Program-made: the position numbers and the translations under genes
Notes under the pieces: generated by a model
What the model saw: only the letters and a program-made list of their open reading frames with translations
What the model was told of the DNA's origin: nothing
Database searches by the model: none
Part shown: in pieces, positions 28,770 to 41,346 of the stretch
Numbering within the stretch: the first letter of the stretch is position 1
Layout: each line of letters starts with the position of its first letter
Virus record (IMG/VR): IMGVR_UViG_3300045993_000425
Span: 102,844 to 166,843 of that record
DNA from: a virus
DNA: 64,000 nucleotides
Strand: one strand, 5' to 3'

Positions 28770-30227
28770 CTAAAGAGCACCAACCAGGTTATCCACGATC
28801 ACGTTCTTGCGGGGCTGGAAGCAGGCCAGCGTCAGGAACCGGAAGTGGGCCTCAGGGGTCGAGAGATCCGAAACCGCGAGCTTGAGGCGGCTGTAGGGGC
28901 TCAGTTCCTTGATGCCCATTGTGTCGGGCTGGAGGAGGAAGCCGGTCACGAAGCCAGGGAGCCGGTTGCCGAGGTCGAGGAACGTGGTCGTCCCACCGCT
29001 CGCCGCTACAACGCGGCCGATGAAGCGGAAGTTGACAGCCTTCGTTCCCGCACCAGCCGCAGAGCGGTAGATGTTGTAGAACTTGGCAGTCACGTTCGTG
29101 ATGATGAGACGCGCCGAGCCGGTCGGGCCAGTGATGGCTACCTTGTGGATACCAGCGGTGTCGCCACCGAGGCCGAACGGAGCCGACTCACCAGCCTCGT
29201 TGCAGGCAGTGACGATGTAGCGGTAGGTGCCGGTCGCGAGCGCACCAGCTACAGTCGCACCGTAGTCAGTCAGCGCACCGGCACCGACAGTCGGAGCCGA
29301 AGGGGAGGTCGTGCGAGCACGCGCCCAGGTCGTCTTGCCCGAGAGGAAGCGGCTGGTTTCGATCTTGACGACGCCACCGTGGACATACTGGCGGGAGAGG
29401 TCCGCACCAGAGACATCGACAGCCGAGCCACCAGCCATCATGCGCTGACCGATTGGAGCGAAAGCCCCGTTGACGGCCCCGATGAGGGTCTTGTTGTAGG
29501 CCGAGGCGACGAGCGGGTCAACGTATAGGTCCTTCGCCTCGCCCATGTTCATCTGGCTACGAACGTGCGCGTCTTCGACTACCGACTGAGTGAGAACGCC
29601 ACCGCCAGTGAGGACGATAGAGAGGTTCGAGCCGAACTCCTCGAGCATCAGGTCATGGCTGTTGAACTGGTAATCCGAGGCGCGAACCTGGATGTCGACA
29701 CCGTGGATGTTCGGGAGAGCCGGAACCGCTAGCGGGTTACCATCGAACACGCCCGCGTTGCTGAAGTCAGCGTAACCCCGGAAGATGTCGTACTCCACAT
29801 CCATTGCGATCTTCTTCGCAGCGTCCTCGGCAGCCCGCTCATCAGCCTTCTTGCCGTCAACCGTTTCGACAAGATTCGCAACGACGGTCGTGCGACGAAG
29901 GTGAGAGTAGAAGGCCATCGGTACGACTACCCGGATGATGCTGCTGGTCTCTTCCTGACCGACTGCGCCTTCAAGCTGCGCCGAGCCGCCGAACTGGCCG
30001 TAGTCCAGCTGGCGATCGAATTGCGCGAGGGTCGACTTGCAGCTCTCGACCTTGATCACCTTCTGGAGCTTGATGATGTCTTCCTTCCAGCATACGTTCT
30101 GAATGACTGGAGAAAGGTCTTCGATCTGTAGCGCGGAGCCCTGAGTCTGCGAACCAGGGAAACCACCCTGCTGACCACCTTCGAGTGCCTTCACTAGGCC
30201 CTGGAGATTACCGATGAGATTTTCCAT
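28770..30227 (-). CDS. major capsid protein (SPO1/Herelleviridae-like)
   Basis: N-terminal LVKA..G...ALQIEDL; FDG..IHGV; YRYIVTACNEAGES and YNIYRS insertion; strong codon bias; follows the scaffold. Confidence 0.9.
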   Translation of the reverse strand: MENLIGNLQGLVKALEGGQQGGFPGSQTQGSALQIEDLSPVIQNVCWKEDIIKLQKVIKVESCKSTLAQFDRQLDYGQFGGSAQLEGAVGQEETSSIIRVVVPMAFYSHLRRTTVVANLVETVDGKKADERAAEDAAKKIAMDVEYDIFRGYADFSNAGVFDGNPLAVPALPNIHGVDIQVRASDYQFNSHDLMLEEFGSNLSIVLTGGGVLTQSVVEDAHVRSQMNMGEAKDLYVDPLVASAYNKTLIGAVNGAFAPIGQRMMAGGSAVDVSGADLSRQYVHGGVVKIETSRFLSGKTTWARARTTSPSAPTVGAGALTDYGATVAGALATGTYRYIVTACNEAGESAPFGLGGDTAGIHKVAITGPTGSARLIITNVTAKFYNIYRSAAGAGTKAVNFRFIGRVVAASGGTTTFLDLGNRLPGFVTGFLLQPDTMGIKELSPYSRLKLAVSDLSTPEAHFRFLTLACFQPRKNVIVDNLVGAL

Positions 30228-30275: not shown

Positions 30276-31157
30276 TTACTTCGTTTCCTTGAAGATGTCA
30301 GCCAGAGCAGCCCGGTCGACGTTGCGGCAGTAGAAGCCAGTGATGAGATCACGGTCCGATTTCGCGAGCTTCGGGTCGGCAGTCTTGACCTTGAGAGCCT
30401 CGTGAAGTTCAGCCGAAGACATCTCGGTGAAGGCCTTGCCCTTGCGGGGCGATTCCGTCTTGGCCATCGGGATGAAGGTCAGACCATTGACAGCCTTGCG
30501 CTGCGGAGCGGTCGCGAGTTTGCCGAGGCCTTCGACGACCTGAGCCATCTGCTCCATCGACTTACGCAGGGTCGAGAGCTCACCCTCGAGCTCCTTGACT
30601 TTCGCCTCGCTCTTGAAAGCACCAGGAGGAGGAGCCGAGGGACCAGCGGACGGACCAGCCGAGGGGCCGGGACCAGCCGAGGGACCAGGAGGAGGACCGG
30701 CGGGCGGGCCACCAGGACCACCAGCACCCTGACCAGCCTTCATCTGAGCAGCAGCCTGAATCGCCTGGACGTGCATCTCGAAGTCCTGGGGAGGGAGCTG
30801 GGCATAGAGGCTAGTAAGCTCCTCAACAGAGGGAGCCGCACCTTCCGCACCGGCAGCCGGATCGGCCGAGGGAGCACCCTCTGGGCCAGCCGGAGGAGCA
30901 CCTTCAGGGCTCGCGGACGGGCCAGGAGGAGGACCAGCCGAGGCAGACGCATCAGGGCTACCCTCAAGACCAGCCGATGGGGAGGCCTCGGGTGAAGCCG
31001 AGGGGGAAGCCTCGGGGCTGCCTTCGGACTGCTCATTGAACTTCTTCAGGTTCGTGCGCTTCGCCTCATTCTTGGCGATGGTCGCAAGTTCGGTCTGAAC
31101 CTGATTGACGAGGTCGAGAAGCTCTGCTTCCGACATTTTGAATCCTGGGGTTGCCAT
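30276..31157 (-). CDS. capsid scaffolding protein
   Basis: Pro/Ala/Gly low complexity plus coiled coil; several xK|S/T sites (FKSE, LRKS, MAKT, LAKS); directly before the MCP. Confidence 0.75.
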   Translation of the reverse strand: MATPGFKMSEAELLDLVNQVQTELATIAKNEAKRTNLKKFNEQSEGSPEASPSASPEASPSAGLEGSPDASASAGPPPGPSASPEGAPPAGPEGAPSADPAAGAEGAAPSVEELTSLYAQLPPQDFEMHVQAIQAAAQMKAGQGAGGPGGPPAGPPPGPSAGPGPSAGPSAGPSAPPPGAFKSEAKVKELEGELSTLRKSMEQMAQVVEGLGKLATAPQRKAVNGLTFIPMAKTESPRKGKAFTEMSSAELHEALKVKTADPKLAKSDRDLITGFYCRNVDRAALADIFKETK

Positions 31158-31782: not shown

Positions 31783-32088
31783 ATGAGAACTTGTACCAGA
31801 TGTGGGATATCGCATACCGATGTACACCATACTCGCTGCTCGGAATGCAGAAGGAAGACTCGAGCGGCAGGCAAATGGCCAGAATGCACCATCTGCGGCT
31901 GGCACCGTAGAGAGGAGTCCCAAGGTGTCTGCTGGCGATGTAGTGGACTGCGGAATTGCACGAAGTGCCTGGAGAGACTTCCTATTCTACTCTTCCAGAC
32001 TAAGAGGCGAGTGTGCCGAGCTTGCCGACAAGAAGCTCGTACTTCCTCTTACGATGCGGACTTCCAGGTGCTCTCTCGCTCTTCTTGA
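31783..32088 (+). CDS. Cys-rich multi-zinc-finger protein
   Basis: Six CxxC pairs in 101 aa. Confidence 0.65.
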   Translation: MRTCTRCGISHTDVHHTRCSECRRKTRAAGKWPECTICGWHRREESQGVCWRCSGLRNCTKCLERLPILLFQTKRRVCRACRQEARTSSYDADFQVLSRSS

Positions 32089-32788
32089 CCATTGGATCAA
32101 GGAGTCCTGCACCAGCAATGGGGCTACGAAGGAGAGGGGCTTGGTTCTTGACGCTGTCTGGGATCTCAGGCTCGTCCCCTACAGGAACCGGACCAGCGGA
32201 GCCAGGGAGCAGCGAATGAGCGTGATTTTTAGCCTGCCCTGGAGGTCTGCCAGCTGCCTTCTTTGCATTCTTGGCATGGATGAGAGCCTGCTCTGCTTGA
32301 TCTGGACTGTCAGCTAGGCCTACGCTGACGCTGTGACGATGCTGCCCCATGATGGGAGGAAGCTGGTCGAGCTCTTCTCGCATTCTACGAACGAAGGCAT
32401 GGGCCTGCTCTGGCTTGTCAAAGTGCGCTCGGAACTCGTCACCACCTACTCGATACAGCTTGCCGCTATTGGACCGGCTAGCGCGACTGATGGCTCCACC
32501 CATCGCCTGGATGGCTTCATCACCTACCGACTGCCCCCACAGCTTGTTGACGACCCCGAAGTCATTGAAGTCGATCATTACATGGACACCAGGCCTATCC
32601 CGACTCAGGAAGTCTTGCGTGTAAGCCAACTTGTTGCCTACGCCAGGAACCATCGTGTCAATAAACAGATGCCGTGCAACGACCTTGGCTGATTCAGGAG
32701 CGACCTGACGCAACAACTTCAGGTGCCGCCCCAGTTCCGATTCGATCTTCCAGAGCTGCTCGCCTGGTTCTCTTTTCGTGATCTGCAT
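32000..32788 (-). CDS. GGDEF-domain (diguanylate cyclase-like) protein
   Basis: MIDFNDF..VN..WG..VGDEAI, YRVGGDEF, SVSVG, A..AK..GR. Confidence 0.9.
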   Translation of the reverse strand: MQITKREPGEQLWKIESELGRHLKLLRQVAPESAKVVARHLFIDTMVPGVGNKLAYTQDFLSRDRPGVHVMIDFNDFGVVNKLWGQSVGDEAIQAMGGAISRASRSNSGKLYRVGGDEFRAHFDKPEQAHAFVRRMREELDQLPPIMGQHRHSVSVGLADSPDQAEQALIHAKNAKKAAGRPPGQAKNHAHSLLPGSAGPVPVGDEPEIPDSVKNQAPLLRSPIAGAGLLDPMVKKSERAPGSPHRKRKYELLVGKLGTLAS

Positions 32789-33102: not shown

Positions 33103-36100
33103 TTAGGTGGCTGGGAACTGCTGCATGGCTACGATACCTTTTGTAGCAGGGTTGCCAGCGAGGAAGGGAGAGAAGAACAGTTGGGCCCGACTCTGGTCTG
33201 GTAGTTTAGCGATCAACTGCAAGTCTCGCAGCCTACGAATCGCCTCACGCTTGGAAGGAGTCGGAATGCCAAGCCTGGTCATGTGGTTGGCTAGGTCGGT
33301 CGACTTGAGTTTACTGATCCAGTTGATGGTGGATGGGTGAGGAGCATTAAATGCCCAAGCGTCGAAAGGATTAGCACGGCTGTTCTTCACCGCTCTATTA
33401 CCTCCGAAGCCCCAGTAATCAGGGATCCAAGGAGTACCCTTACCCCCGCCGAGCGAAAGACCGTTGTCGATCAGATGGATACCTCCAGGTGTCACCATCC
33501 AGTTACCACTGTGACGGTCGTTGTTGCCCAAGATCATATCCATCAAGGCTAGCCTGTCGAGGAGCCCAGACCTGAAATGTTCAGCTACTTGGTCCCTGTG
33601 TCCATTGCCTCTATGTTCAGCCCCATCGACACGCAACTGACTGGAGTAAGGCTCACCATGTCCTGGGTGCAAGAAAGCTGCTGTCACAGGTACATGATCT
33701 CCTAGCCCGAACACCTTGTGGGCCAGTTCGTAGAATGCGGCCTCTCGATGGGCTGGGGTGTAGTCATCAAAGCTAGCATGACCGAAGTAATCCATAGTCG
33801 GACCAGCTGGCTTGACCCACCCTACATGACCAGCAGTGCTGGCTAGCCACTTGGCGTCCCCACCCTCCCGCTCAGTCAACCCCATCCTCTGCCCTATGAG
33901 GTTCTTTTCACCATCTTCGTCCAGATCGATGCCGTCGATCAATGCAATCTGGCCTGGAGAATGAGCATGGTGAGGGATGCCGTGCCTGGATGCGCTGACG
34001 ACGAGCCCGCTGCCTACCTGCCTGGGGTGCCTGATGACATCGAAGTGCGTACTGCTAGTGATATGCTCTGGCAGGATAGCGAGAGTACCCTTGCTATCCA
34101 TGACGAAAGTCCGACGATTGATACCTAGCGGACTAGTCGGATCACCCAATTTGACGAGATGGGTCTCCTGCCCCATCTTAGGACCAGCAGCCCAGCGAAT
34201 GGCACCCAACTCAATGTTCTTGCCCTTGTACTTGATGACCTTTGGAGCCGCTGGCGGATTGACAGGAGCGGGTTGATTGCCTGGGTCGGTAGCCTTCCTA
34301 AGCTGTGCAGCTAGCCGCTCACCCTTGGATAGCGAATGCGAGAGGATGTGCGGAAGCATAAAAGCGTAATAGGCAAACATGGCTGGGGTGGTTCCAAACT
34401 GAAGTTCGAGCTCATGCATGACATGAGCGCACCGAGCAGGCATTGAGCCGCCATCCGACCAATCTGTTTCGTCCGAATCATTGCTCGCCTTGCTTTCATC
34501 CTTGAGTAGCTTCCGGTCGTATGGGACTCCATACCGATCTAGCATATGCTTGGCAGCCATGAAGAAAACCCGATGGTCTGTACCGGCGTTCTCTGCCTGG
34601 TTCTGCCAGCCCCTCTGAAGTTCATGCGGCTCAATAGAGAGCCAGTGCAACCAGAAGCCAGGGAAGAGGGCCTGCTCTCCGATGTCCTCTCCATACCGGC
34701 GGCGGATCTTCTCTCGAGTGAACTGCACCGCTGGGTGCCGGTCATAGTAGTACTTGTCGATATCCTGCCAGAGAGGCTCGTGCTCTGCATTCAGCATGCT
34801 CGACTTGACTTGCTCGATCTGCGGGTCGCCATTCATGAGGCCAAAGGTGTGCCTGAGGAAGTGCGTGTCAGGTACGACGACATTGCCGCTGCCGATCATG
34901 CCAAGGAGATAGCGGAGAGTCTTGACCGCAAAGCCTGAGGCGACAGGCATACCTGGGTCAAGTCCCTTGTTTCTGGAGCTATTCCTGTCCTTCTCGTTCT
35001 GCGACTTCAGCTCCAGGATGTGTCTGCTGATCTCGCGACCATCTGCACCATGCTGACCCACCATTCCACTCAGAAGCTGGTGGAAGGCGTGGTAGTCCTC
35101 AGTGCGGTCCCATTTTCCATCCGAGGGAGGATTGCGACCCTCGAGGCCTACTGGGCGTAGATACGGCTCCCCCTTCGTCTCACCTTCCTTCGTCCAGGCA
35201 GTAGAGCGACGACTGTCTCGGATGGAGAAGAAATCCTTCATGAACTCAGGCATCATGTGACCAACAGATGCCGCCTTGAACTCCTTGAAGTACTGGTCCT
35301 TGAGGTCCTGGGGAAGCTCAACCGTAGGGTCCCACTTGTGGTTGTGCATCATGTCAATAACGCGAGCAAAAGCAAGCTCTTGGAGCGGGACGGCCGTGTT
35401 ACCAGTGATGAATACCTGACCAGATCGTCTGGCAACGAAGAAGCTGTTCGGCACTACAGGACACCAGACTGGTACTTTTCCGACGAACTCCCGCCTGTGG
35501 CTGCTTTCGAGTCGAGTGAACTTGCGCTGCTGTACACTCACATTGAAGCAGCCTGTCATCTTCGGGATGTTCTTCATCTTGTCAGACTTCGGAGAATACA
35601 TCGACATATCGCGCCAGTAGCTGTATGCCACACCACCAGTTAGCGTAACCAAAGCCTGGAAAGCGTCAGCCTGCTCTCTTCTACCAGTTGTCAGCGTTTT
35701 CCTGGCCTTCCAGTTGGAGTGCTCCTTGTGCTGATTGATACAACCGTCACCCAAGATCATGGACTCCTTGAGTCGTTCCAGAGCGTGACGATCTAGATCA
35801 ACAAGAGTGGCAACTGTAAGCGTTCTATCTGGACACCTAGATATTAGCATGTTGCTTAGGCGAGTCCCAATTCGCCATACATACTTGCCATCCTTCGGGA
35901 AACTGTACCGAGTCCACTCACCATCTCTGCCAGATGGACCAAGCCTAGACAACAGAGCATCGATCCTGGCGCACTTCTCTGGATTGGCTGTTGGGCTCTG
36001 AACCAAGAAGCATCCTTGACGATCCGGCTTGGTCTTGTTCTTGAAATGCCTAATGAATCCATCTGTGACAAACCAACCAAGAAGCTCTGCTTCATCTCCA

Positions 36101-37875
36101 GTAAGAGACGACACGCTAGCTGGTTGATACTCACCGGTTCTGTGAATCTGGTCATTTGCCGTACCAATAGTTGCACTGGTTTTTTCTCTGACGACGCCTC
36201 TTCCAGTAGTGACCAACCATCTATGATCAGGGGTCGTGATGACATTGAACGAGCGACTCTTGAACTCAACAAGAGGCCCTTCGTAGTCAGGGAAGAATCG
36301 GAGATCGGTTGGTTTTTGCCATTCGAGAGCGTTTGTTTCAGCGTTCTTCGTCAAGATCTCATCATCCATCCGAAGATCAAAACCAGGAACCCACCCACGC
36401 TTGGTCAAGGCTTCTGTCTTATCGTCAAGACAGTTGGGACTCATGGTAGAGAAGAGCGCAGATAGAGCCACGACACCATGAGGGAGCCGTCCCTCTCGAG
36501 TCAGCTTGTGGAGGGCGAACCAGTGGTCGAGGGCCCGGTTGTGGATCTCATTGATGCCGGGATTGCTCAAGATCTGCATGTAGTGGTCATCATCCGCTTC
36601 TGGGATGTAGATGCGTAGAGGACTCGGGGTCCACATCAGAACCTTGCCGTCAGGCCCCCTCGGCTTTCCCTTGACCTGCTTCTTCGCGAAGTAGACAACT
36701 CCTGTCCTTTTATCGAAGTAGGTCCTAGTCCTGTCCATCTTGCGACGATGGATGTCATCCTTCTCCGCAGGAGGCAGCGAAGGGGCAGGCTCGCCAGCAG
36801 CTTGGGCATCCTTGATGTCCCTGACGACACCACGATAGGCCTTCTCGGGGTCTGGTGCATTCTTGGGAACCGTGACCGTCACCTTGTGAACGACACCACC
36901 TGGAGGGTCGAGGATGGTGTCTCTGACCGGAGGTGCCTTCTCTGCTTTCGGCTTCTTGACCTTGGGTTGCTCCTCGTCCTTGCGGAGGTGCTTGAGGCGT
37001 CCCTTGACAGATAGGTCGTCTACTAGGTCGCTGAAGTGATCAACGAACTCGTCGGAGGCATCAGGCAGCTGCGATTTGAGGTAAGTCTTGAAGGGACCGT
37101 GCTGGAACTTATCATAGTCCCTCAGAGCAGCCTTGGCTCGGTTCTTCTGCTCGCTGGTCGCCAGGTTCTCTGTCTCGAGCGCAGCTTGACCTGTCTGAGC
37201 TCCCGGCATCCCACCCTGCATCTTCCGAAGACCAGCTAGAGCAGCGACCAGCATCTCAGCGGGTGTCGTCTGGTCGACCCACAATCCCTCACCCAGGCGT
37301 CGAAACAGGGTTCCCTCGCCCTTCGCTGTCTCCTCTAGGAAGGAAACGTCGGTCTTAGCTCCACCTTGCTCTGGGTCGAGGAGGACTCCTGTCACAGCGG
37401 ACTTGTTGGCTGGCTTCATCGTTGCGGCACAGCGACGAGCGATGGTCCTCTTCAGGACATTCCCGTCTCGCTCGAGAGTGCTTCCCTCCACTGACCAGCG
37501 GATCGAGAGTGGCTCACCGGCAGCCGCCTGGTCGCGAATGATAGCAGCGGCAGCCTTGGCGTTCTCATGACCTGAGGCATCGAAGAGCCTGACCACCCCA
37601 TAGACGAAGGGAACCTTGCAGGCCTCCCAGTAGGTCTTCTGGCGGTCGTCATCGCAATCCTTGGCACCGAAAATCTTCTTTGCTTTGATGAACTTACCGA
37701 TGATGCTAGATGGACCCTGGTCGTCACCGGCATGCTCCCAGTTGAGTTCAGCACCATTCTGGAGGCTAGAGATATCTGCCCCCTCAACGAGGAGGATTTC
37801 CCCTGAGCTATCAACGTGCTCTGAGCACACGATGCCGTCGATCACTAGTCCCTTGCTGCCCTGGCCATCGGCCAT
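33103..37875 (-). CDS. prohead protease fused to an intein-containing HhH-glycosylase-like domain and a PI3/4K-like kinase
   Basis: IDGIVCSEHVDSSGE...LNWEH...WSVEG; GFAVKT...VVPDTH; REAAFY...NNDRHSGN...LIDNG. Confidence 0.85.
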   Translation of the reverse strand: MADGQGSKGLVIDGIVCSEHVDSSGEILLVEGADISSLQNGAELNWEHAGDDQGPSSIIGKFIKAKKIFGAKDCDDDRQKTYWEACKVPFVYGVVRLFDASGHENAKAAAAIIRDQAAAGEPLSIRWSVEGSTLERDGNVLKRTIARRCAATMKPANKSAVTGVLLDPEQGGAKTDVSFLEETAKGEGTLFRRLGEGLWVDQTTPAEMLVAALAGLRKMQGGMPGAQTGQAALETENLATSEQKNRAKAALRDYDKFQHGPFKTYLKSQLPDASDEFVDHFSDLVDDLSVKGRLKHLRKDEEQPKVKKPKAEKAPPVRDTILDPPGGVVHKVTVTVPKNAPDPEKAYRGVVRDIKDAQAAGEPAPSLPPAEKDDIHRRKMDRTRTYFDKRTGVVYFAKKQVKGKPRGPDGKVLMWTPSPLRIYIPEADDDHYMQILSNPGINEIHNRALDHWFALHKLTREGRLPHGVVALSALFSTMSPNCLDDKTEALTKRGWVPGFDLRMDDEILTKNAETNALEWQKPTDLRFFPDYEGPLVEFKSRSFNVITTPDHRWLVTTGRGVVREKTSATIGTANDQIHRTGEYQPASVSSLTGDEAELLGWFVTDGFIRHFKNKTKPDRQGCFLVQSPTANPEKCARIDALLSRLGPSGRDGEWTRYSFPKDGKYVWRIGTRLSNMLISRCPDRTLTVATLVDLDRHALERLKESMILGDGCINQHKEHSNWKARKTLTTGRREQADAFQALVTLTGGVAYSYWRDMSMYSPKSDKMKNIPKMTGCFNVSVQQRKFTRLESSHRREFVGKVPVWCPVVPNSFFVARRSGQVFITGNTAVPLQELAFARVIDMMHNHKWDPTVELPQDLKDQYFKEFKAASVGHMMPEFMKDFFSIRDSRRSTAWTKEGETKGEPYLRPVGLEGRNPPSDGKWDRTEDYHAFHQLLSGMVGQHGADGREISRHILELKSQNEKDRNSSRNKGLDPGMPVASGFAVKTLRYLLGMIGSGNVVVPDTHFLRHTFGLMNGDPQIEQVKSSMLNAEHEPLWQDIDKYYYDRHPAVQFTREKIRRRYGEDIGEQALFPGFWLHWLSIEPHELQRGWQNQAENAGTDHRVFFMAAKHMLDRYGVPYDRKLLKDESKASNDSDETDWSDGGSMPARCAHVMHELELQFGTTPAMFAYYAFMLPHILSHSLSKGERLAAQLRKATDPGNQPAPVNPPAAPKVIKYKGKNIELGAIRWAAGPKMGQETHLVKLGDPTSPLGINRRTFVMDSKGTLAILPEHITSSTHFDVIRHPRQVGSGLVVSASRHGIPHHAHSPGQIALIDGIDLDEDGEKNLIGQRMGLTEREGGDAKWLASTAGHVGWVKPAGPTMDYFGHASFDDYTPAHREAAFYELAHKVFGLGDHVPVTAAFLHPGHGEPYSSQLRVDGAEHRGNGHRDQVAEHFRSGLLDRLALMDMILGNNDRHSGNWMVTPGGIHLIDNGLSLGGGKGTPWIPDYWGFGGNRAVKNSRANPFDAWAFNAPHPSTINWISKLKSTDLANHMTRLGIPTPSKREAIRRLRDLQLIAKLPDQSRAQLFFSPFLAGNPATKGIVAMQQFPAT
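35398..36432 (-). mobile_element. intein (345 aa) with a LAGLIDADG-type homing endonuclease
   Basis: SPN|CLDDKTEALT...TPDHR...LGWFVTDG...MILGDG...FITGN|T. Confidence 0.92.
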
Positions 37876-37925: not shown

Positions 37926-37945
37926 CTCGCTATAGCAGTAGCATG

Positions 37946-37974
37946 TTGACACCCGCGCAGTGGTTTGATAGTAT
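37946..37974 (+). promoter_or_regulatory. early promoter TTGACA-N17-TAGTAT (probably leaderless)
   Basis: ATG is 6 nt after the -10. Confidence 0.85.
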
Positions 37975-37980
37975 CCGTTC

Positions 37981-38310
37981 ATGACAACAACTCAACTCAC
38001 CGCAGCAGGGCTCAAGGTGGAGTTCACCGAGCACGTTGCCGATTTCGACGTGAACCCATTTCTGGGCATCCTTCGCTTCGGAAAGGTGGTCTCCCAACGC
38101 AAGGACAAGTCGGGAGCCATCAAGGTCGGCTTTGAGGACGGAACCGTCTGTTTCTACTACAAGGGCATCCGCATTCAGGAGGACAAGATGGTTCCCTCTG
38201 GTTACTGGGGGCGGTGGCGTGCCTACACCTACGACACAGAATGCCGGGGCATCTATCACAGCAAACTGAGGGATGTGGTCGAGGAGATCAAGAAGATCGC
38301 AGTGAAATAA
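37981..38310 (+). CDS. hypothetical early protein (109 aa)
   Basis: Lies between two early promoters. Confidence 0.8.
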   Translation: MTTTQLTAAGLKVEFTEHVADFDVNPFLGILRFGKVVSQRKDKSGAIKVGFEDGTVCFYYKGIRIQEDKMVPSGYWGRWRAYTYDTECRGIYHSKLRDVVEEIKKIAVK

Positions 38311-38314
38311 GATG

Positions 38315-38343
38315 TTGACCCCCGCACGGCTTTTTGATAGTAT
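38315..38343 (+). promoter_or_regulatory. early promoter TTGACC-N17-TAGTAT
   Basis: Matches the family consensus. Confidence 0.85.
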
Positions 38344-38383
38344 CTTTTCAGTTCGCAGGGCAGACCAACCGAAGGAGGGCACA

Positions 38384-38854
38384 ATGGCTGACTTCAAGGT
38401 GACCGCAGACGAGGCTCGCGACATCCTGGTGGGCGAAGTGGAAGACCTCTACCTCGATGTCCGCGAGGACCTCTTCTCCAAGGGTCGGTCTTGGGAGGAC
38501 GGGGAGGAGATCGCGGGGTTCCGCTACTCGGTCGTCGCGGAGCAGCGGAACGGCCGCCGGTACACCCACATCATCTCCTTCGCGACCGGGCACGACTGCG
38601 CCACCACCTCCCGCTGCGACGGGGAGTGCAGCATCCCCAAGGAGGAGCAGGGGCTCACCAAGAACCAGGCGAGGGCGAAGGCAGAGTACCTTCTCGCCCG
38701 CATCGAGGTCGCCCGCGCCGCTCGCTGCTGGGACGGTCCTTGGAAGAACAAGAACTGGGTGGAAACCCGCCCCTCCTACGGCTCTGAGGTCTACGCCAAC
38801 GAGGGATGGTCCGCCGAGGAAGCTCGCCTAGAGCAGGAGAGCGAGTTCGACTAG
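38384..38854 (+). CDS. hypothetical early protein (start revised to MADFKV)
   Basis: AAGGAGG RBS. Confidence 0.82.
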   Translation: MADFKVTADEARDILVGEVEDLYLDVREDLFSKGRSWEDGEEIAGFRYSVVAEQRNGRRYTHIISFATGHDCATTSRCDGECSIPKEEQGLTKNQARAKAEYLLARIEVARAARCWDGPWKNKNWVETRPSYGSEVYANEGWSAEEARLEQESEFD

Positions 38855-38930: not shown

Positions 38931-40079
38931 ATGGCTGACTCGAAGCAGAAGATGGACGGGCGGCGGGCGACCTACTTCCGAGTGGAGTCGGACGACAAGT
39001 TCAGCGAGATCAAGCTGGTCGTCGACCGGAAGCACCCCCTCTTCGACGGGCGGGCTCTCCTCGCCCCGAACGAGGCTCTGGTGAACTCAATCGCCATCCA
39101 GGGGGTGCTGGAGCCCATCGAGGTCATCGAGGCCCCCCGCGAGCCGGGAAACCCCAAGCGGATCTACCACATCGTCTTCGGGAGGCAGCGTTTCAACGCA
39201 TGGAGGGTCGCCTGCGAGCAGCGCAAGGCAAAGGGGCTCGACAGCCTCTCCCTCCCCTGCCTCGTGTCGCATGGGCAGAGCAACGACGAGAAGGCCCCTC
39301 TGGAGGCGGTGGCGAAAATGGCTGCGGAGAATATCCGCACGGCTGACACGCCTGTCAACATGGCGCACAAAATCGCCGCTTTCCTGAACATCGAGGACGA
39401 CGAGCCCCGCGCCGCTGTCTCGTTCGGACTGACGGTCGCCGCAGTCCGCAACCACCTCGCCCTCTTGAAGCTGCCGGAGGAGATCCAGCAGAAGGTCGAG
39501 ACGGGCGAGATCGGCATCACCGCTGCTCTCATCCTGGGCAAGCTGGACAAGGAGCACCTCAAGGAGACGCTCGCGACCATCGAGCCATCGGTTCCTTGGG
39601 AGAACAGGGAGATCAAGGTCGCCAACCCGGCAGCCCCCACTCCGACCAAACTCAGCATCGCGGACGCCCACAAGGCTCTGCGGGCCTCCAAGGGCAAGAA
39701 GGAGAAGCCGCTCGGTCCCGCTCGCCGCGATGTCGAGAAGGTCCTCGACACCGTCATCGGGGCTCAGGACAACGAGTTCAACCTCGGTGTCCGAGCCGCC
39801 CTCCGCTACCTGACCGGCGAACTCCCCAGCGAGCGGCTGCTGGCGATGGTCAACGAGTCCCGGCAGGAGACGAAGTCCCGGCAGGAGACGAAGGCCTTCG
39901 AGGTCGGTCAGAAGGTTCGTCTCTCTCGCGAGTTCTTGGTGAAGAGCGGGCGGCAGCCCAGCCCCACCGTCTGGGAGGTCGTCTCAAGCCCTGCCTCGGG
40001 TCGGGTCGAGGTTCAGGAGGTGGGCACCGACAAGGTGACCCACCTGCCCATCGCCAACCTCGAGGCTGTCGCGTCATGA
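38931..40079 (+). CDS. ParB-like protein (ParB N-domain + HTH)
   Basis: LVNSIAIQGVLEPI...VFGRQRF.A...AEN.R...HTH...LLKLPEEIQQKV..GEI. Confidence 0.85.
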   Translation: MADSKQKMDGRRATYFRVESDDKFSEIKLVVDRKHPLFDGRALLAPNEALVNSIAIQGVLEPIEVIEAPREPGNPKRIYHIVFGRQRFNAWRVACEQRKAKGLDSLSLPCLVSHGQSNDEKAPLEAVAKMAAENIRTADTPVNMAHKIAAFLNIEDDEPRAAVSFGLTVAAVRNHLALLKLPEEIQQKVETGEIGITAALILGKLDKEHLKETLATIEPSVPWENREIKVANPAAPTPTKLSIADAHKALRASKGKKEKPLGPARRDVEKVLDTVIGAQDNEFNLGVRAALRYLTGELPSERLLAMVNESRQETKSRQETKAFEVGQKVRLSREFLVKSGRQPSPTVWEVVSSPASGRVEVQEVGTDKVTHLPIANLEAVAS

Positions 40080-40324
40080 TTCAGTTCAAGACGCTCGACC
40101 GCCCCGGTCAGTGCCAAGGCTGCGGGGCACACACCCAGGAGGACCTAGATCCAGACCTCCTGACGAAGAAGCTGTGCCTCCTGGGTCTGGGAGGCATCAA
40201 CAACGTCCCTGGCCGCCTCATCATCCTATGCGGAAGCTGCTGCACGCAGTTCAGGGCACATCTGTGGAAGTGGATCAAGTCTGAGGGGCAGGACATGATG
40301 TCGGTGGGTCTCCACAAGAAGTAG
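40076..40324 (+). CDS. small zinc-finger protein (MIQFKTL...)
   Basis: ATGA overlap; CQGC...CGSC. Confidence 0.65.
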   Translation: MIQFKTLDRPGQCQGCGAHTQEDLDPDLLTKKLCLLGLGGINNVPGRLIILCGSCCTQFRAHLWKWIKSEGQDMMSVGLHKK

Positions 40325-40359
40325 GACAAGACAGCCACTCTGTGGTAGAAGGAGGCGAG

Positions 40360-41346
40360 ATGGACACACTACTGTACTCTGGCGAGCCTCCTTGGCACAA
40401 CCTTGGATTCCGACTCGACCGGCCTATGGCTGTCGAAGAAGCCTTCCGCCTTACCCTCGACTGGAGGGTGATCGAGACTCCACTCTACTACGCCAACCCT
40501 GTGACAGGGGAGGCAGTCAAGGTCCACACCAGCAAGGCTCTGGTGCGTAGCAGCAACGGGAAGGACCTGGCGGTCGTCGGAGCCAGCTATTCGGTATTTC
40601 AGAACCAGGAGCATTGCAGCTTCCTCCAGCACCTTTTGGGTCCTGATGGGACGGTCGAGGAGGCTGGTGAACTAGCTGGAGGCAAGAAGATCTGGCTTCT
40701 GTGTCGGCTCAAGGGGCAGATCGAGGTCGGATCTGAGAGGCTCGACAAGTACGTCCTGAGCGTAACCAGCCACGATGGGTCGATGTCTCACTCGATCATC
40801 CCTCTGGTAATGCGGAGATCCTCCCAGAGTTGCTGGGAAGCCAACTTGTCCGGTCAACCTGATGTCAAAATCAGGCACACTAGCAGGATGGACCAGATGG
40901 TCATCGAGGCTGCGAAGACAGCCAGGCTGACCGACCAGCGATTCCAGCAGGTGGAAGCCGAATGCCACAAGCTGGCAGGAGACAGGTTCTCTACCAGCCA
41001 GATGGCGGAAATAGCTGACCGGCTGTTCCCTGAGACTCCTCTAATGAAGTCGGGCAAGATGGACCACCAGAATCTGCACATCTCTGACAGGAACCAGGCG
41101 GCCAGGGACGCTCTCCTGCACCTGTACAAGGATGGGCATGGGCAGCACCACCACCCAGGCAGCCGGTGGGCAGCTCTAGGAGCAGTGACTGAATACGCCT
41201 GCCACCACAGGCCTACCAGGGTAGCGAACGGAAGTCGGGACGAGAGAGCGGTACGAGACACAAGGCTGCAATCAGTCTGGTTCGGAGCCAGCAGGAAGCT
41301 AATCAGGAAGGCGCGAGAGCTAATCCAACCCAAGAGGACACCATGA
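40360..41346 (+). CDS. DUF932 / TIGR03299-like phage-plasmid protein
   Basis: PWHNLG, YSVFQN, AGELAGGKKIW, SHDGS, RHT, W.A...VTEY..H; AAGGAGG RBS. Confidence 0.85.
   Translation: MDTLLYSGEPPWHNLGFRLDRPMAVEEAFRLTLDWRVIETPLYYANPVTGEAVKVHTSKALVRSSNGKDLAVVGASYSVFQNQEHCSFLQHLLGPDGTVEEAGELAGGKKIWLLCRLKGQIEVGSERLDKYVLSVTSHDGSMSHSIIPLVMRRSSQSCWEANLSGQPDVKIRHTSRMDQMVIEAAKTARLTDQRFQQVEAECHKLAGDRFSTSQMAEIADRLFPETPLMKSGKMDHQNLHISDRNQAARDALLHLYKDGHGQHHHPGSRWAALGAVTEYACHHRPTRVANGSRDERAVRDTRLQSVWFGASRKLIRKARELIQPKRTP

Follow-up and report, generated by a model that had tools for sequence, protein, structure and literature searches.

A prohead protease fused to an intein-split glycosylase-like domain and a kinase: a putative self-loading head polyprotein in relatives of Myxococcus phage Mx1

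Phage heads can carry enzymes into the host cell, as do those of T4, with Alt and the internal proteins, and of N4, with its RNA polymerase. To our knowledge, the nature of such cargo and the way it is recruited are known for just a handful of model phages. Here, we ask whether enzymes could be loaded into a phage head as the tail of the maturation protease itself, a question raised by one gene in the IMG/VR virus record IMGVR_UViG_3300045993_000425. This record (166,843 bp) is complete by CheckV, and we analyzed its final 64 kb (positions 102,844 to 166,843), referred to below as the window. A single uninterrupted open reading frame (ORF) of 1,590 codons on the minus strand of the window (33103..37875) encodes three enzyme domains: a prohead protease, a glycosylase-like domain of the helix-hairpin-helix (HhH) HhH-GPD type that is split by an intein, and a PI3/4K-like kinase. 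Residue numbers follow this 1,590-amino-acid protein, P0001, unless stated otherwise. Of 167 representatives of the family, 96 retain the complete architecture, which is far more than chance would produce. On balance, we lean toward the view that P0001 is a self-loading head polyprotein, in which the enzymes that form the tail of the protease would be loaded into the prohead, cut free, and injected.

The locus had previously been described from its letters alone, and that sequence-only reading proposed that the protease carries an HhH-glycosylase-like enzyme, possibly acting on modified bases, and a kinase. The folds it proposed have stood, but nothing we found supports a modified-base target. 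Every motif it quoted lies in this one ORF: LRKDE (297 to 301), LFSTMSPN (474 to 481, followed by C482), TAV (827 to 829), GFAVKT (981 to 986), VVPDTHFLRH (1000 to 1009), LSKGE (1182 to 1186), LRKA (1192 to 1195), and DRHSGN...LIDNG (1453 to 1472). The span it assigned, 33103 to 37000, covers residues 292 to 1590 but omits the protease.

Three enzyme domains in one reading frame

Searches with the intact protein were largely silent. Pfam, PHROG, and NCBIfam scans of the whole protein returned the kinase catalytic loop only, a PDB search with the single whole sequence gave no match, and one with a full-length profile gave chance matches only. A BFVD search found only phage proteins without names. 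The predicted structure of residues 1 to 175 (37351..37875; all features of P0001 are on the minus strand) has the assemblin-type beta-barrel fold of the clan SH prohead serine proteases, as in T4 gp21 and herpesvirus assemblin, and bears out the N-terminal protease of the sequence-only reading. The candidate catalytic residues are H48 and S128, with H103; among 129 members of the family, 128 keep H48, 129 keep S128, and 124 keep H103. In gp21, the catalytic Ser and His are S140 and H85. The gene also occupies the position expected of a prohead protease, between the portal gene and the genes for the scaffold and the major capsid protein (MCP).

The protease is followed by a motif of about 30 residues, ...GxPGxxTGxxALxxExL (residues 208 to 240, 37156..37254), that is common to the N-terminal propeptide of the MCP. 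A profile hidden Markov model of this segment matches MCP residues 7 to 39 with an E value of 5.6e-12, the sole other match among all ORFs of the window, and the two segments share the consensus L.KA.E.G..NAAP..L..G.ALQ.EDL. By this sequence likeness, the segment may be a common docking, recognition, or cleavage element. Next come a small helical bundle (residues 241 to 297, 36985..37155), for which docking to the core or scaffold may be one possibility, and a poorly conserved Lys/Pro-rich spacer (residues 302 to 382, 36730..36972) with low occupancy and identity in the family alignment.

The middle domain consists of an N-extein part ending in LFSTMSPN (residues 383 to 481, 36433..36729) and a C-extein part (residues 827 to 1122, 34510..35397). 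We modeled it on residues 372 to 816 of the intein-free homologue P0003, which is 45% identical. The model (mean predicted local distance difference test [pLDDT] score, 83; predicted template modeling score, 0.80) begins with a short beta-hairpin, is helical thereafter, and has the two-lobed, all-helical HhH-GPD fold. In an unbiased structural search with this model, the top 22 chains all belonged to the HhH-GPD superfamily, with Ogg2, EndoIII, OGG1, MagIII, Mag1, ROS1, NTHL1, AlkA, MutY, MIG, AGOG, and the related queuine-salvage DUF2419 family among them. Comparison of an intein-free structure with HhH-GPD proteins, the check that the sequence-only reading had itself proposed, therefore found the HhH fold present. 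The helix-hairpin-helix, Gly-rich loop, and Asp motif (GFAVK985T...VVPD1003TH, residues 981 to 1009, 34849..34935) contains the hairpin, a Gly/Pro-rich loop, an invariant Asp, and a Lys in the second HhH helix, in the family pattern GFAxK...GxGNxxVPD-TH. The Lys-to-Asp spacing is 18, the same as in the Ogg/EndoIII type, in agreement with the K...D pattern noted earlier. A profile of the motif region aligns GFAxKT...GxGNxxVPDTH to Lys136 and Asp154 of the MjOgg chain (3fhf), which we take to be catalytic K129 and D147 after subtraction of a 7-residue tag; with an E value of 0.45 and a place among chance matches to GFP, this alignment is not significant alone and is usable only together with the fold match. 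Of the 166 members on which conservation in this domain was counted, all have the Asp, 163 have the Lys, and 165 have the His that comes next; the SPN motif retains S in 145, P in 110, and N in 121. The aromatic pocket motifs FPxFWxHW and PHE are also kept, at a mean identity of 30%. The catalytic pair and the likeness to Ogg2 point to a putative base-excision/apurinic-apyrimidinic (AP) lyase chemistry. A small helical module (residues 1128 to 1181, 34333..34494), corresponding to helices 394 to 444 of the P0003 model, accompanies the glycosylase-like domain in nearly all architectures.

The C-terminal domain (residues 1196 to 1590, 33106..34290) matches the PI3/PI4-kinase family PF00454 with 29.8 bits when residues 1192 to 1590 are searched alone and 27.6 bits in the whole protein, against a cutoff of 27.1 bits; 21 of 25 homologues also match. 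The catalytic loop DRHSGN and the metal-binding LIDNG lie at residues 1453 to 1472 (33460..33519). By analogy with known kinases, K1355 would be the ATP-binding Lys and E1378 the helix-C Glu, D1453 and N1458 would belong to the DRHxxN loop, and D1470 would be the metal-binding Asp; they are conserved in 98, 100, 105, 101, and 103 of the 109 kinase-bearing members, respectively. In the ESM Atlas, the nearest cluster to the kinase carries PF00454 (score, 0.89), which we treat as a lead only. Judged from these motifs, the C terminus is a PI3/4K-like kinase with a complete set of catalytic motifs, as had been proposed.

Conserved motifs at the domain borders

If the enzymes are released from the protease, cleavage sites would be expected between them. 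The border between protease and linker contains K185-G-E187 (37315..37323), the first KxE motif and a candidate cleavage site, whose Lys and Glu are at least 90% conserved and which lies in a segment (182 to 195) with pLDDT below 50. An LxKxE site, L297-R-K-D-E301 (36973..36987), precedes the spacer, with L297 and K299 at least 90% conserved. L1123-L-K-D-E1127 (34495..34509) follows the glycosylase core, in a loop that is predicted to be disordered; its Lys is invariant (25 of 25), and the equivalent loop of the P0003 model (residues 372 to 384) has pLDDT below 50. Finally, L1182-S-K-G-E1186 and L1192-R-K-A1195 (34291..34332), again with invariant Lys, stand before the kinase. Four KxE motifs (at K185, K299, K1125, and K1184) thus show little or no variation amid freely varying surroundings; a Leu usually sits two residues before the Lys, and pLDDT is below 50 in the segments around three of the motifs.

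These motifs are also enriched across the family. KxE occurs in 116 of 126 gaps between protease and linker, compared with 60 in shuffled sequences. The longer form, hydrophobic-x-K-x-E, is found between protease and linker in 73 of 126 members (25 expected from shuffles), between linker and middle domain in 82 of 130 (28 expected), and between the small helical module and the kinase in 78 of 95 (16 expected), so that it is 3 to 5 times more common at domain borders than in shuffled linkers. We considered whether the LxK motifs arose by chance and rejected this idea because they are invariant within variable linkers and enriched over shuffles. Architectural changes in the family respect the same borders. 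Two members (P0007 and P0012) have an extra Cys-rich module of about 70 residues after the position of residue 299, between LAKAE and LEKAE; some genes, such as P0050, stop right after the small helical module, at the kinase border; and in P0032 and P0118 a GGDEF domain replaces the kinase as the C-terminal module of the protease polyprotein. Module swaps, insertions, and gene ends therefore fall at KxE borders and count in favor of cleavage. From the conservation and enrichment of the KxE linker motifs, we infer that the parts of P0001 are cut from one another. The sequence-only reading had placed the cut after Lys; however, gp21 of T4 and the homologues of gp21 in giant phages recognize three residues, L/I-x-E in the case of T4 gp21, and cleave behind the Glu (PMC9026906), and for this reason the scissile bond is more likely the one after the Glu of KxE.

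Based on the observed domain folds, motif conservation, intein, linker-motif enrichment, and synteny with Mx1 and metagenomic relatives, we infer a path that includes prohead targeting, cleavage at these positions, retention in the capsid, ejection, and two enzyme activities with their substrates. The gp21-type serine protease and the adjoining MCP-propeptide-like motif would take the whole chain into the prohead core. Splicing of the intein would have to come first, to rejoin SPN|T in its loop of the middle domain. The activated protease would then cut the hydrophobic-x-K-x-E linkers, probably after Glu, and the scaffold-like and GGDEF proteins encoded nearby, described below, carry the same motif. 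Two enzymes would be set free in this way: an Ogg2-like HhH-GPD enzyme, in which the Lys/Asp pair of bifunctional DNA glycosylase/AP lyases is retained, and a PI3/4K-like kinase. At about 360 and 400 residues, these products would be too large to leave the closed shell and should therefore travel with the genome; they would remain beside the DNA and pass with it into the next host, like T4 Alt and the T4 internal proteins. A precedent is T4 gp21, which processes Alt and IPI-III, proteins built into the core and injected with the DNA (PMC9026906).

Several observations weigh against a self-loading polyprotein. No sequence profile assigns the protease to Pfam S77, S78, or S80: the N terminus has no Pfam, PHROG, or NCBIfam match at E values up to 10, and a protease-only profile gave only chance matches to bromodomains in the PDB. 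Nor does any sequence profile place the middle domain in PF00730 (HhH-GPD), which has no match anywhere in this genome at E values up to 10, whereas 14 of 14 control genomes do match, and which none of 25 homologues matches. Because the fold and the Lys/Asp pair are present while PF00730 is absent, we regard the middle domain as a structural member of the superfamily that has a bifunctional-type catalytic pair and stands outside the curated sequence family. The Pfam match of the kinase covers just 40 of 241 profile positions (135 to 174, the catalytic-loop region). In the model, the helices that follow LLKDE pack on the core, so this motif may be no more than a flexible loop. Lastly, the KxE site of the MCP itself is not conserved in Mx1 or in the relative L004.

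A broader proposal, which we put forward tentatively and as the less likely extension of the above, is that fusion to the protease is a general self-loading route for first-strike enzymes. These would include an Ogg2-derived glycosylase/lyase that enters with the DNA and either nicks host DNA at a base that the phage lacks or strips a defense-installed lesion or mark from the incoming genome, and a kinase (or GGDEF cyclase) that rewires host signaling or defense messengers.

A profile search of 1.84 billion representatives returned 216 clusters at 50% identity, 184 of them with E values below 1e-30; among the matches listed (the best 150 of 216), almost all come from phages and almost all are 1,000 to 1,700 residues long. 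The order of protease, linker, glycosylase-like domain, helical module, and kinase is complete in the 96 representatives mentioned above, and, in 39 of 41 IMG/VR loci and about 130 of the 167 representatives, the protease has the glycosylase-like domain as its steady partner, with many relatives lacking the kinase. Protease-free occurrences include P0098 (2,933 amino acids) and P0088, giant polyvalent-type proteins with mCpol, DUF3293, and SAM-lyase-like modules. In P0089 and P0104, the domain stands behind an N-terminal segment that looks acetyltransferase-like by eye, and P0168 is a stand-alone middle-domain protein. Among 185,579 species genomes, the domain was found in only two, on phage-sized contigs of metagenome-assembled genomes (MAGs): a 163.6-kb contig from Myxococcales (L049) and a 45-kb contig from Saccharibacteria (L050). 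Both are probably phage genomes binned into MAGs, and the presence of the former in a Myxococcales bin supports a Myxococcales host range.

The constancy of the pairing between protease and glycosylase-like domain would also fit an assembly function, in which the C-terminal domains act within the head: the HhH domain would organize or bind the packaged DNA or hold the protease to the core, head proteins would be substrates of the kinase, and the chain may remain uncut or be degraded. HhH motifs contact the DNA backbone irrespective of sequence, and T4 gp21 itself is processed at its C terminus and needs this processing (PMC9026906). We nevertheless consider a head-internal role unlikely. The Lys/Asp/His residues, the aromatic pocket motifs, and the catalytic residues of the kinase are almost invariant, the glycosylase-like domain is also found away from any protease in polyvalent proteins, and the kinase is replaceable by GGDEF.

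Inteins and the putative active site of the middle domain

The intein of the middle domain bears on whether this domain still has an active site, as evidence separate from the fold. Residues 482 to 826 (35398..36432; 345 amino acids) constitute a class 1 intein with a predicted LAGLIDADG homing endonuclease domain that splits SPN|T. Of 28 close homologues, 27 lack the insert precisely, from boundary to boundary (SPN|TAVP), among them the Mx1 protein WNM70322; the rejoined flanks, SPN-TAVP, give the sequence of P0003, and Mx1 reads SPN-KAVP. It is thus a precise, in-frame insertion in a conserved motif, as is characteristic of inteins. It starts with C482, contains TTPDH, LLGWFVTDG, and MILGDG, and ends at ...ITGN826, with T827 as the +1 residue; the Cys1, TxxH, C-terminal Asn, and +1 Thr positions (C482, TTPDH, N826, and T827) are those expected of an intein and are conserved in seven related inteins. 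The penultimate residue is Gly825 in place of His, and related inteins have Gly or Lys; a penultimate His is not essential in all inteins. LLGWFVTDG and MILGDG are likewise conserved in the related inteins, the Pfam match to LAGLIDADG_3 is weak (16 bits against a cutoff of 22.5; E value, 0.015), and the intein has no PDB or Pfam match above threshold. In tblastn searches, it matches inteins in phage methylase, portal, and polymerase genes, with E values from 1e-14 to 5e-35.

Inserts of more than 100 residues occur in the glycosylase-like domain of 13 of 166 representatives, at three sites. The first site, after SPN, is occupied in six members, including P0001, P0134, P0045, P0046, and P0163. 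The second, after QELxY and 12 residues beyond SPN, is occupied in five members and by a second insert in P0048, and holds a different intein type, ending TSN|S. The third, within the Gly-rich loop that separates the catalytic Lys from the Asp (GxGN|[S/C]xVPDTH), is occupied in two members, P0051 and P0028. In P0048, inteins of two types stand 12 residues from each other. Sites 1 and 3 hold one intein family, with 47 to 59% identity across sites and 55 to 65% within site 1, and both sites read N|[T/S/C]-x-V-P, which suggests an ectopic jump between look-alike homing sites. The sequence-only reading took the insertion in SPN as a sign that this motif is functional, and the conservation of SPN and its recurrent use as an intein site agree with that view. 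Repeated insertion into the most conserved motifs, as seen here, is typical of functional active-site regions and supports the idea that these motifs matter. The hot spot for inteins and the assignment to Ogg2 are additions of this analysis.

These insertions argue against the view that the middle domain is a catalytically dead HhH-GPD relic serving as a spacer or folding module. The absence of any sequence profile tying it to active glycosylase families and its large insertions (about 330 residues, compared with about 207 in Ogg2) are what a relic might show; however, inteins have entered its most conserved motifs three times, and the retention of Asp, Lys, and His in all or nearly all members, together with FPxFWxHW and PHE, at such low mean identity makes a relic highly improbable. 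Least likely of all is that the kinase and the glycosylase-fold domain form a base-hypermodification pair acting on phage DNA in or near the capsid, a reading that we examined through ThyA, Pfam, and structure 8z2n and set low: although the known thymidine pathway pairs a DNA kinase with an HhH "glycosylase-like" transferase, with fusions of the two (PMC8989533), and thymidylate synthase and dNMP kinase genes adjoin the capsid gene of Mx1, none of 25 members matches aGPT-Pplase in Pfam at E values up to 10, the family keeps Lys/Asp and not the Cys/Glu pair of the amino-acid:DNA transferases, the kinase is PI3/4K-like and not a P-loop kinase and is dispensable in many relatives, and a PF00303 (ThyA-type) homologue is absent from this genome.

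Genomic setting and known systems

The sole cultured relative is Myxococcus phage Mx1, a myovirus of 169.6 kb (genome paper, PMC10720576); megablast against cultured phages gave no match. Mx1 WNM70322, a "putative prohead protease" of 1,239 residues, aligns with all parts of P0001 except the 345-residue insert. The window, Mx1, and metagenomic relatives have a common gene order of protease fusion, small ORF, GGDEF cyclase, ORF of about 150 residues, scaffold-like gene, and MCP gene; on a larger scale, the order portal ... protease fusion ... GGDEF ... scaffold-like ... MCP is identical in Mx1, L004, and the window, and it differs downstream of the cyclase in the relative L002. The GGDEF-type cyclase gene (32000..32788, minus strand; 262 amino acids; PF00990 E value, 3.7e-14) is two ORFs downstream of the fusion, and its protein has the KxE motifs ITKRE, LWKIE, and VKKSE near both ends. 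The scaffold-like protein (30276..31157, minus strand; 293 amino acids) is encoded just upstream of the MCP gene, is rich in Pro, Ala, Gly, and Ser, has no family match, and contains repeated hydrophobic-x-K-x-E: three such motifs (IAKNE, AFKSE, and MAKTE), plus LAKSD. Its homologues in Mx1, L003, and L004 have 6 to 7 such motifs each, at partly aligned positions, and on this sequence pattern it is probably a scaffold degraded by the protease. The MCP (28770..30227, minus strand; phrog_752 E value, 6e-39) has LVKALE and VIKVE in addition to the 30-residue motif in its propeptide. Just upstream of the head-module operon, and divergent from it, are ParB-like (phrog_1033, HTH_ParB) and DUF932 genes (38931 to 41346, plus strand). 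An ORF of 164 codons at 37930 to 38424 (minus strand) has no match and may not be a gene.

This family, with about 216 clusters and one cultured member, points to a different recruitment logic, in which translation yields the passenger as a C-terminal extension of the maturation protease. We found no paper on the protease-glycosylase-kinase fusion, a full-text search listed none that pairs HhH-GPD with virion proteins, and a repair-type DNA glycosylase/lyase is a passenger type that we found in no paper; delivery of a DNA glycosylase by the virion, if true, would add a new class to the effectors that phages inject. Mx1 and its host are in culture, which opens the idea to direct testing. The three intein sites in one domain are an independent pointer to its active-site motifs, and they offer a natural case of one intein family in two sites of a single domain.

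Individual parts of P0001 resemble known proteins. Phage LAGLIDADG inteins, such as those in mycobacteriophage methylase, portal, and terminase genes, have the same Cys1, TxxH, terminal Asn, and +1 Thr, and their two LAGLIDADG motifs have candidate counterparts in P0001. In contrast to them, the intein of P0001 has a penultimate Gly, not His, lies in a new host gene, is only 27% identical, and belongs to a family found in two different sites of one domain. The nearest fold relatives of the middle domain are the Ogg2 8-oxoguanine DNA glycosylase/AP lyases SsOgg (3fhg), MjOgg (3fhf/3knt), and Tm1821 (3n0u), to which it is 11 to 13% identical, without a profile-level sequence match. Compared with Ogg2, it has about 120 residues of insertions, plus the beta-hairpin and the C-terminal helical module, and it sits inside a predicted virion polyprotein. 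The pairing of aGPT-Pplase with 5-HMUDK (PMC8989533; PaMx11 gp46, 8z2n) likewise joins a phage kinase to an HhH glycosylase-fold enzyme that acts on DNA bases.

Two known systems resemble the assembly as a whole. Polyvalent proteins (Iyer et al. 2017, PMC5512222) are likewise multienzyme chains, proposed to enter with the DNA and then to be split into active pieces. They include kinase modules, and some relatives of the middle domain are found in proteins of this type, beside mCpol and SAM-lyase-like modules. Their processing domains, however, are zincin-like peptidases, whereas here a head-maturation protease is present, and their kinases are of a truncated Ser/Thr/Tyr type; the text of that survey does not contain the word "glycosylase" and mentions a prohead protease once (PMC5512222). 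The closest known system is T4 gp21 with the head-packaged Alt and IPI-III, along with phiKZ gp175 and the SPN3US system. The gp21 motif is L/I-x-E, whereas the motif here has Lys at P3 (KxE), and the protease here has no sequence match to Pfam S77. In T4, the passengers are the products of separate genes and bear an N-terminal capsid-targeting peptide, whereas here they lie within the protease polypeptide and comprise a glycosylase-like enzyme and a kinase.

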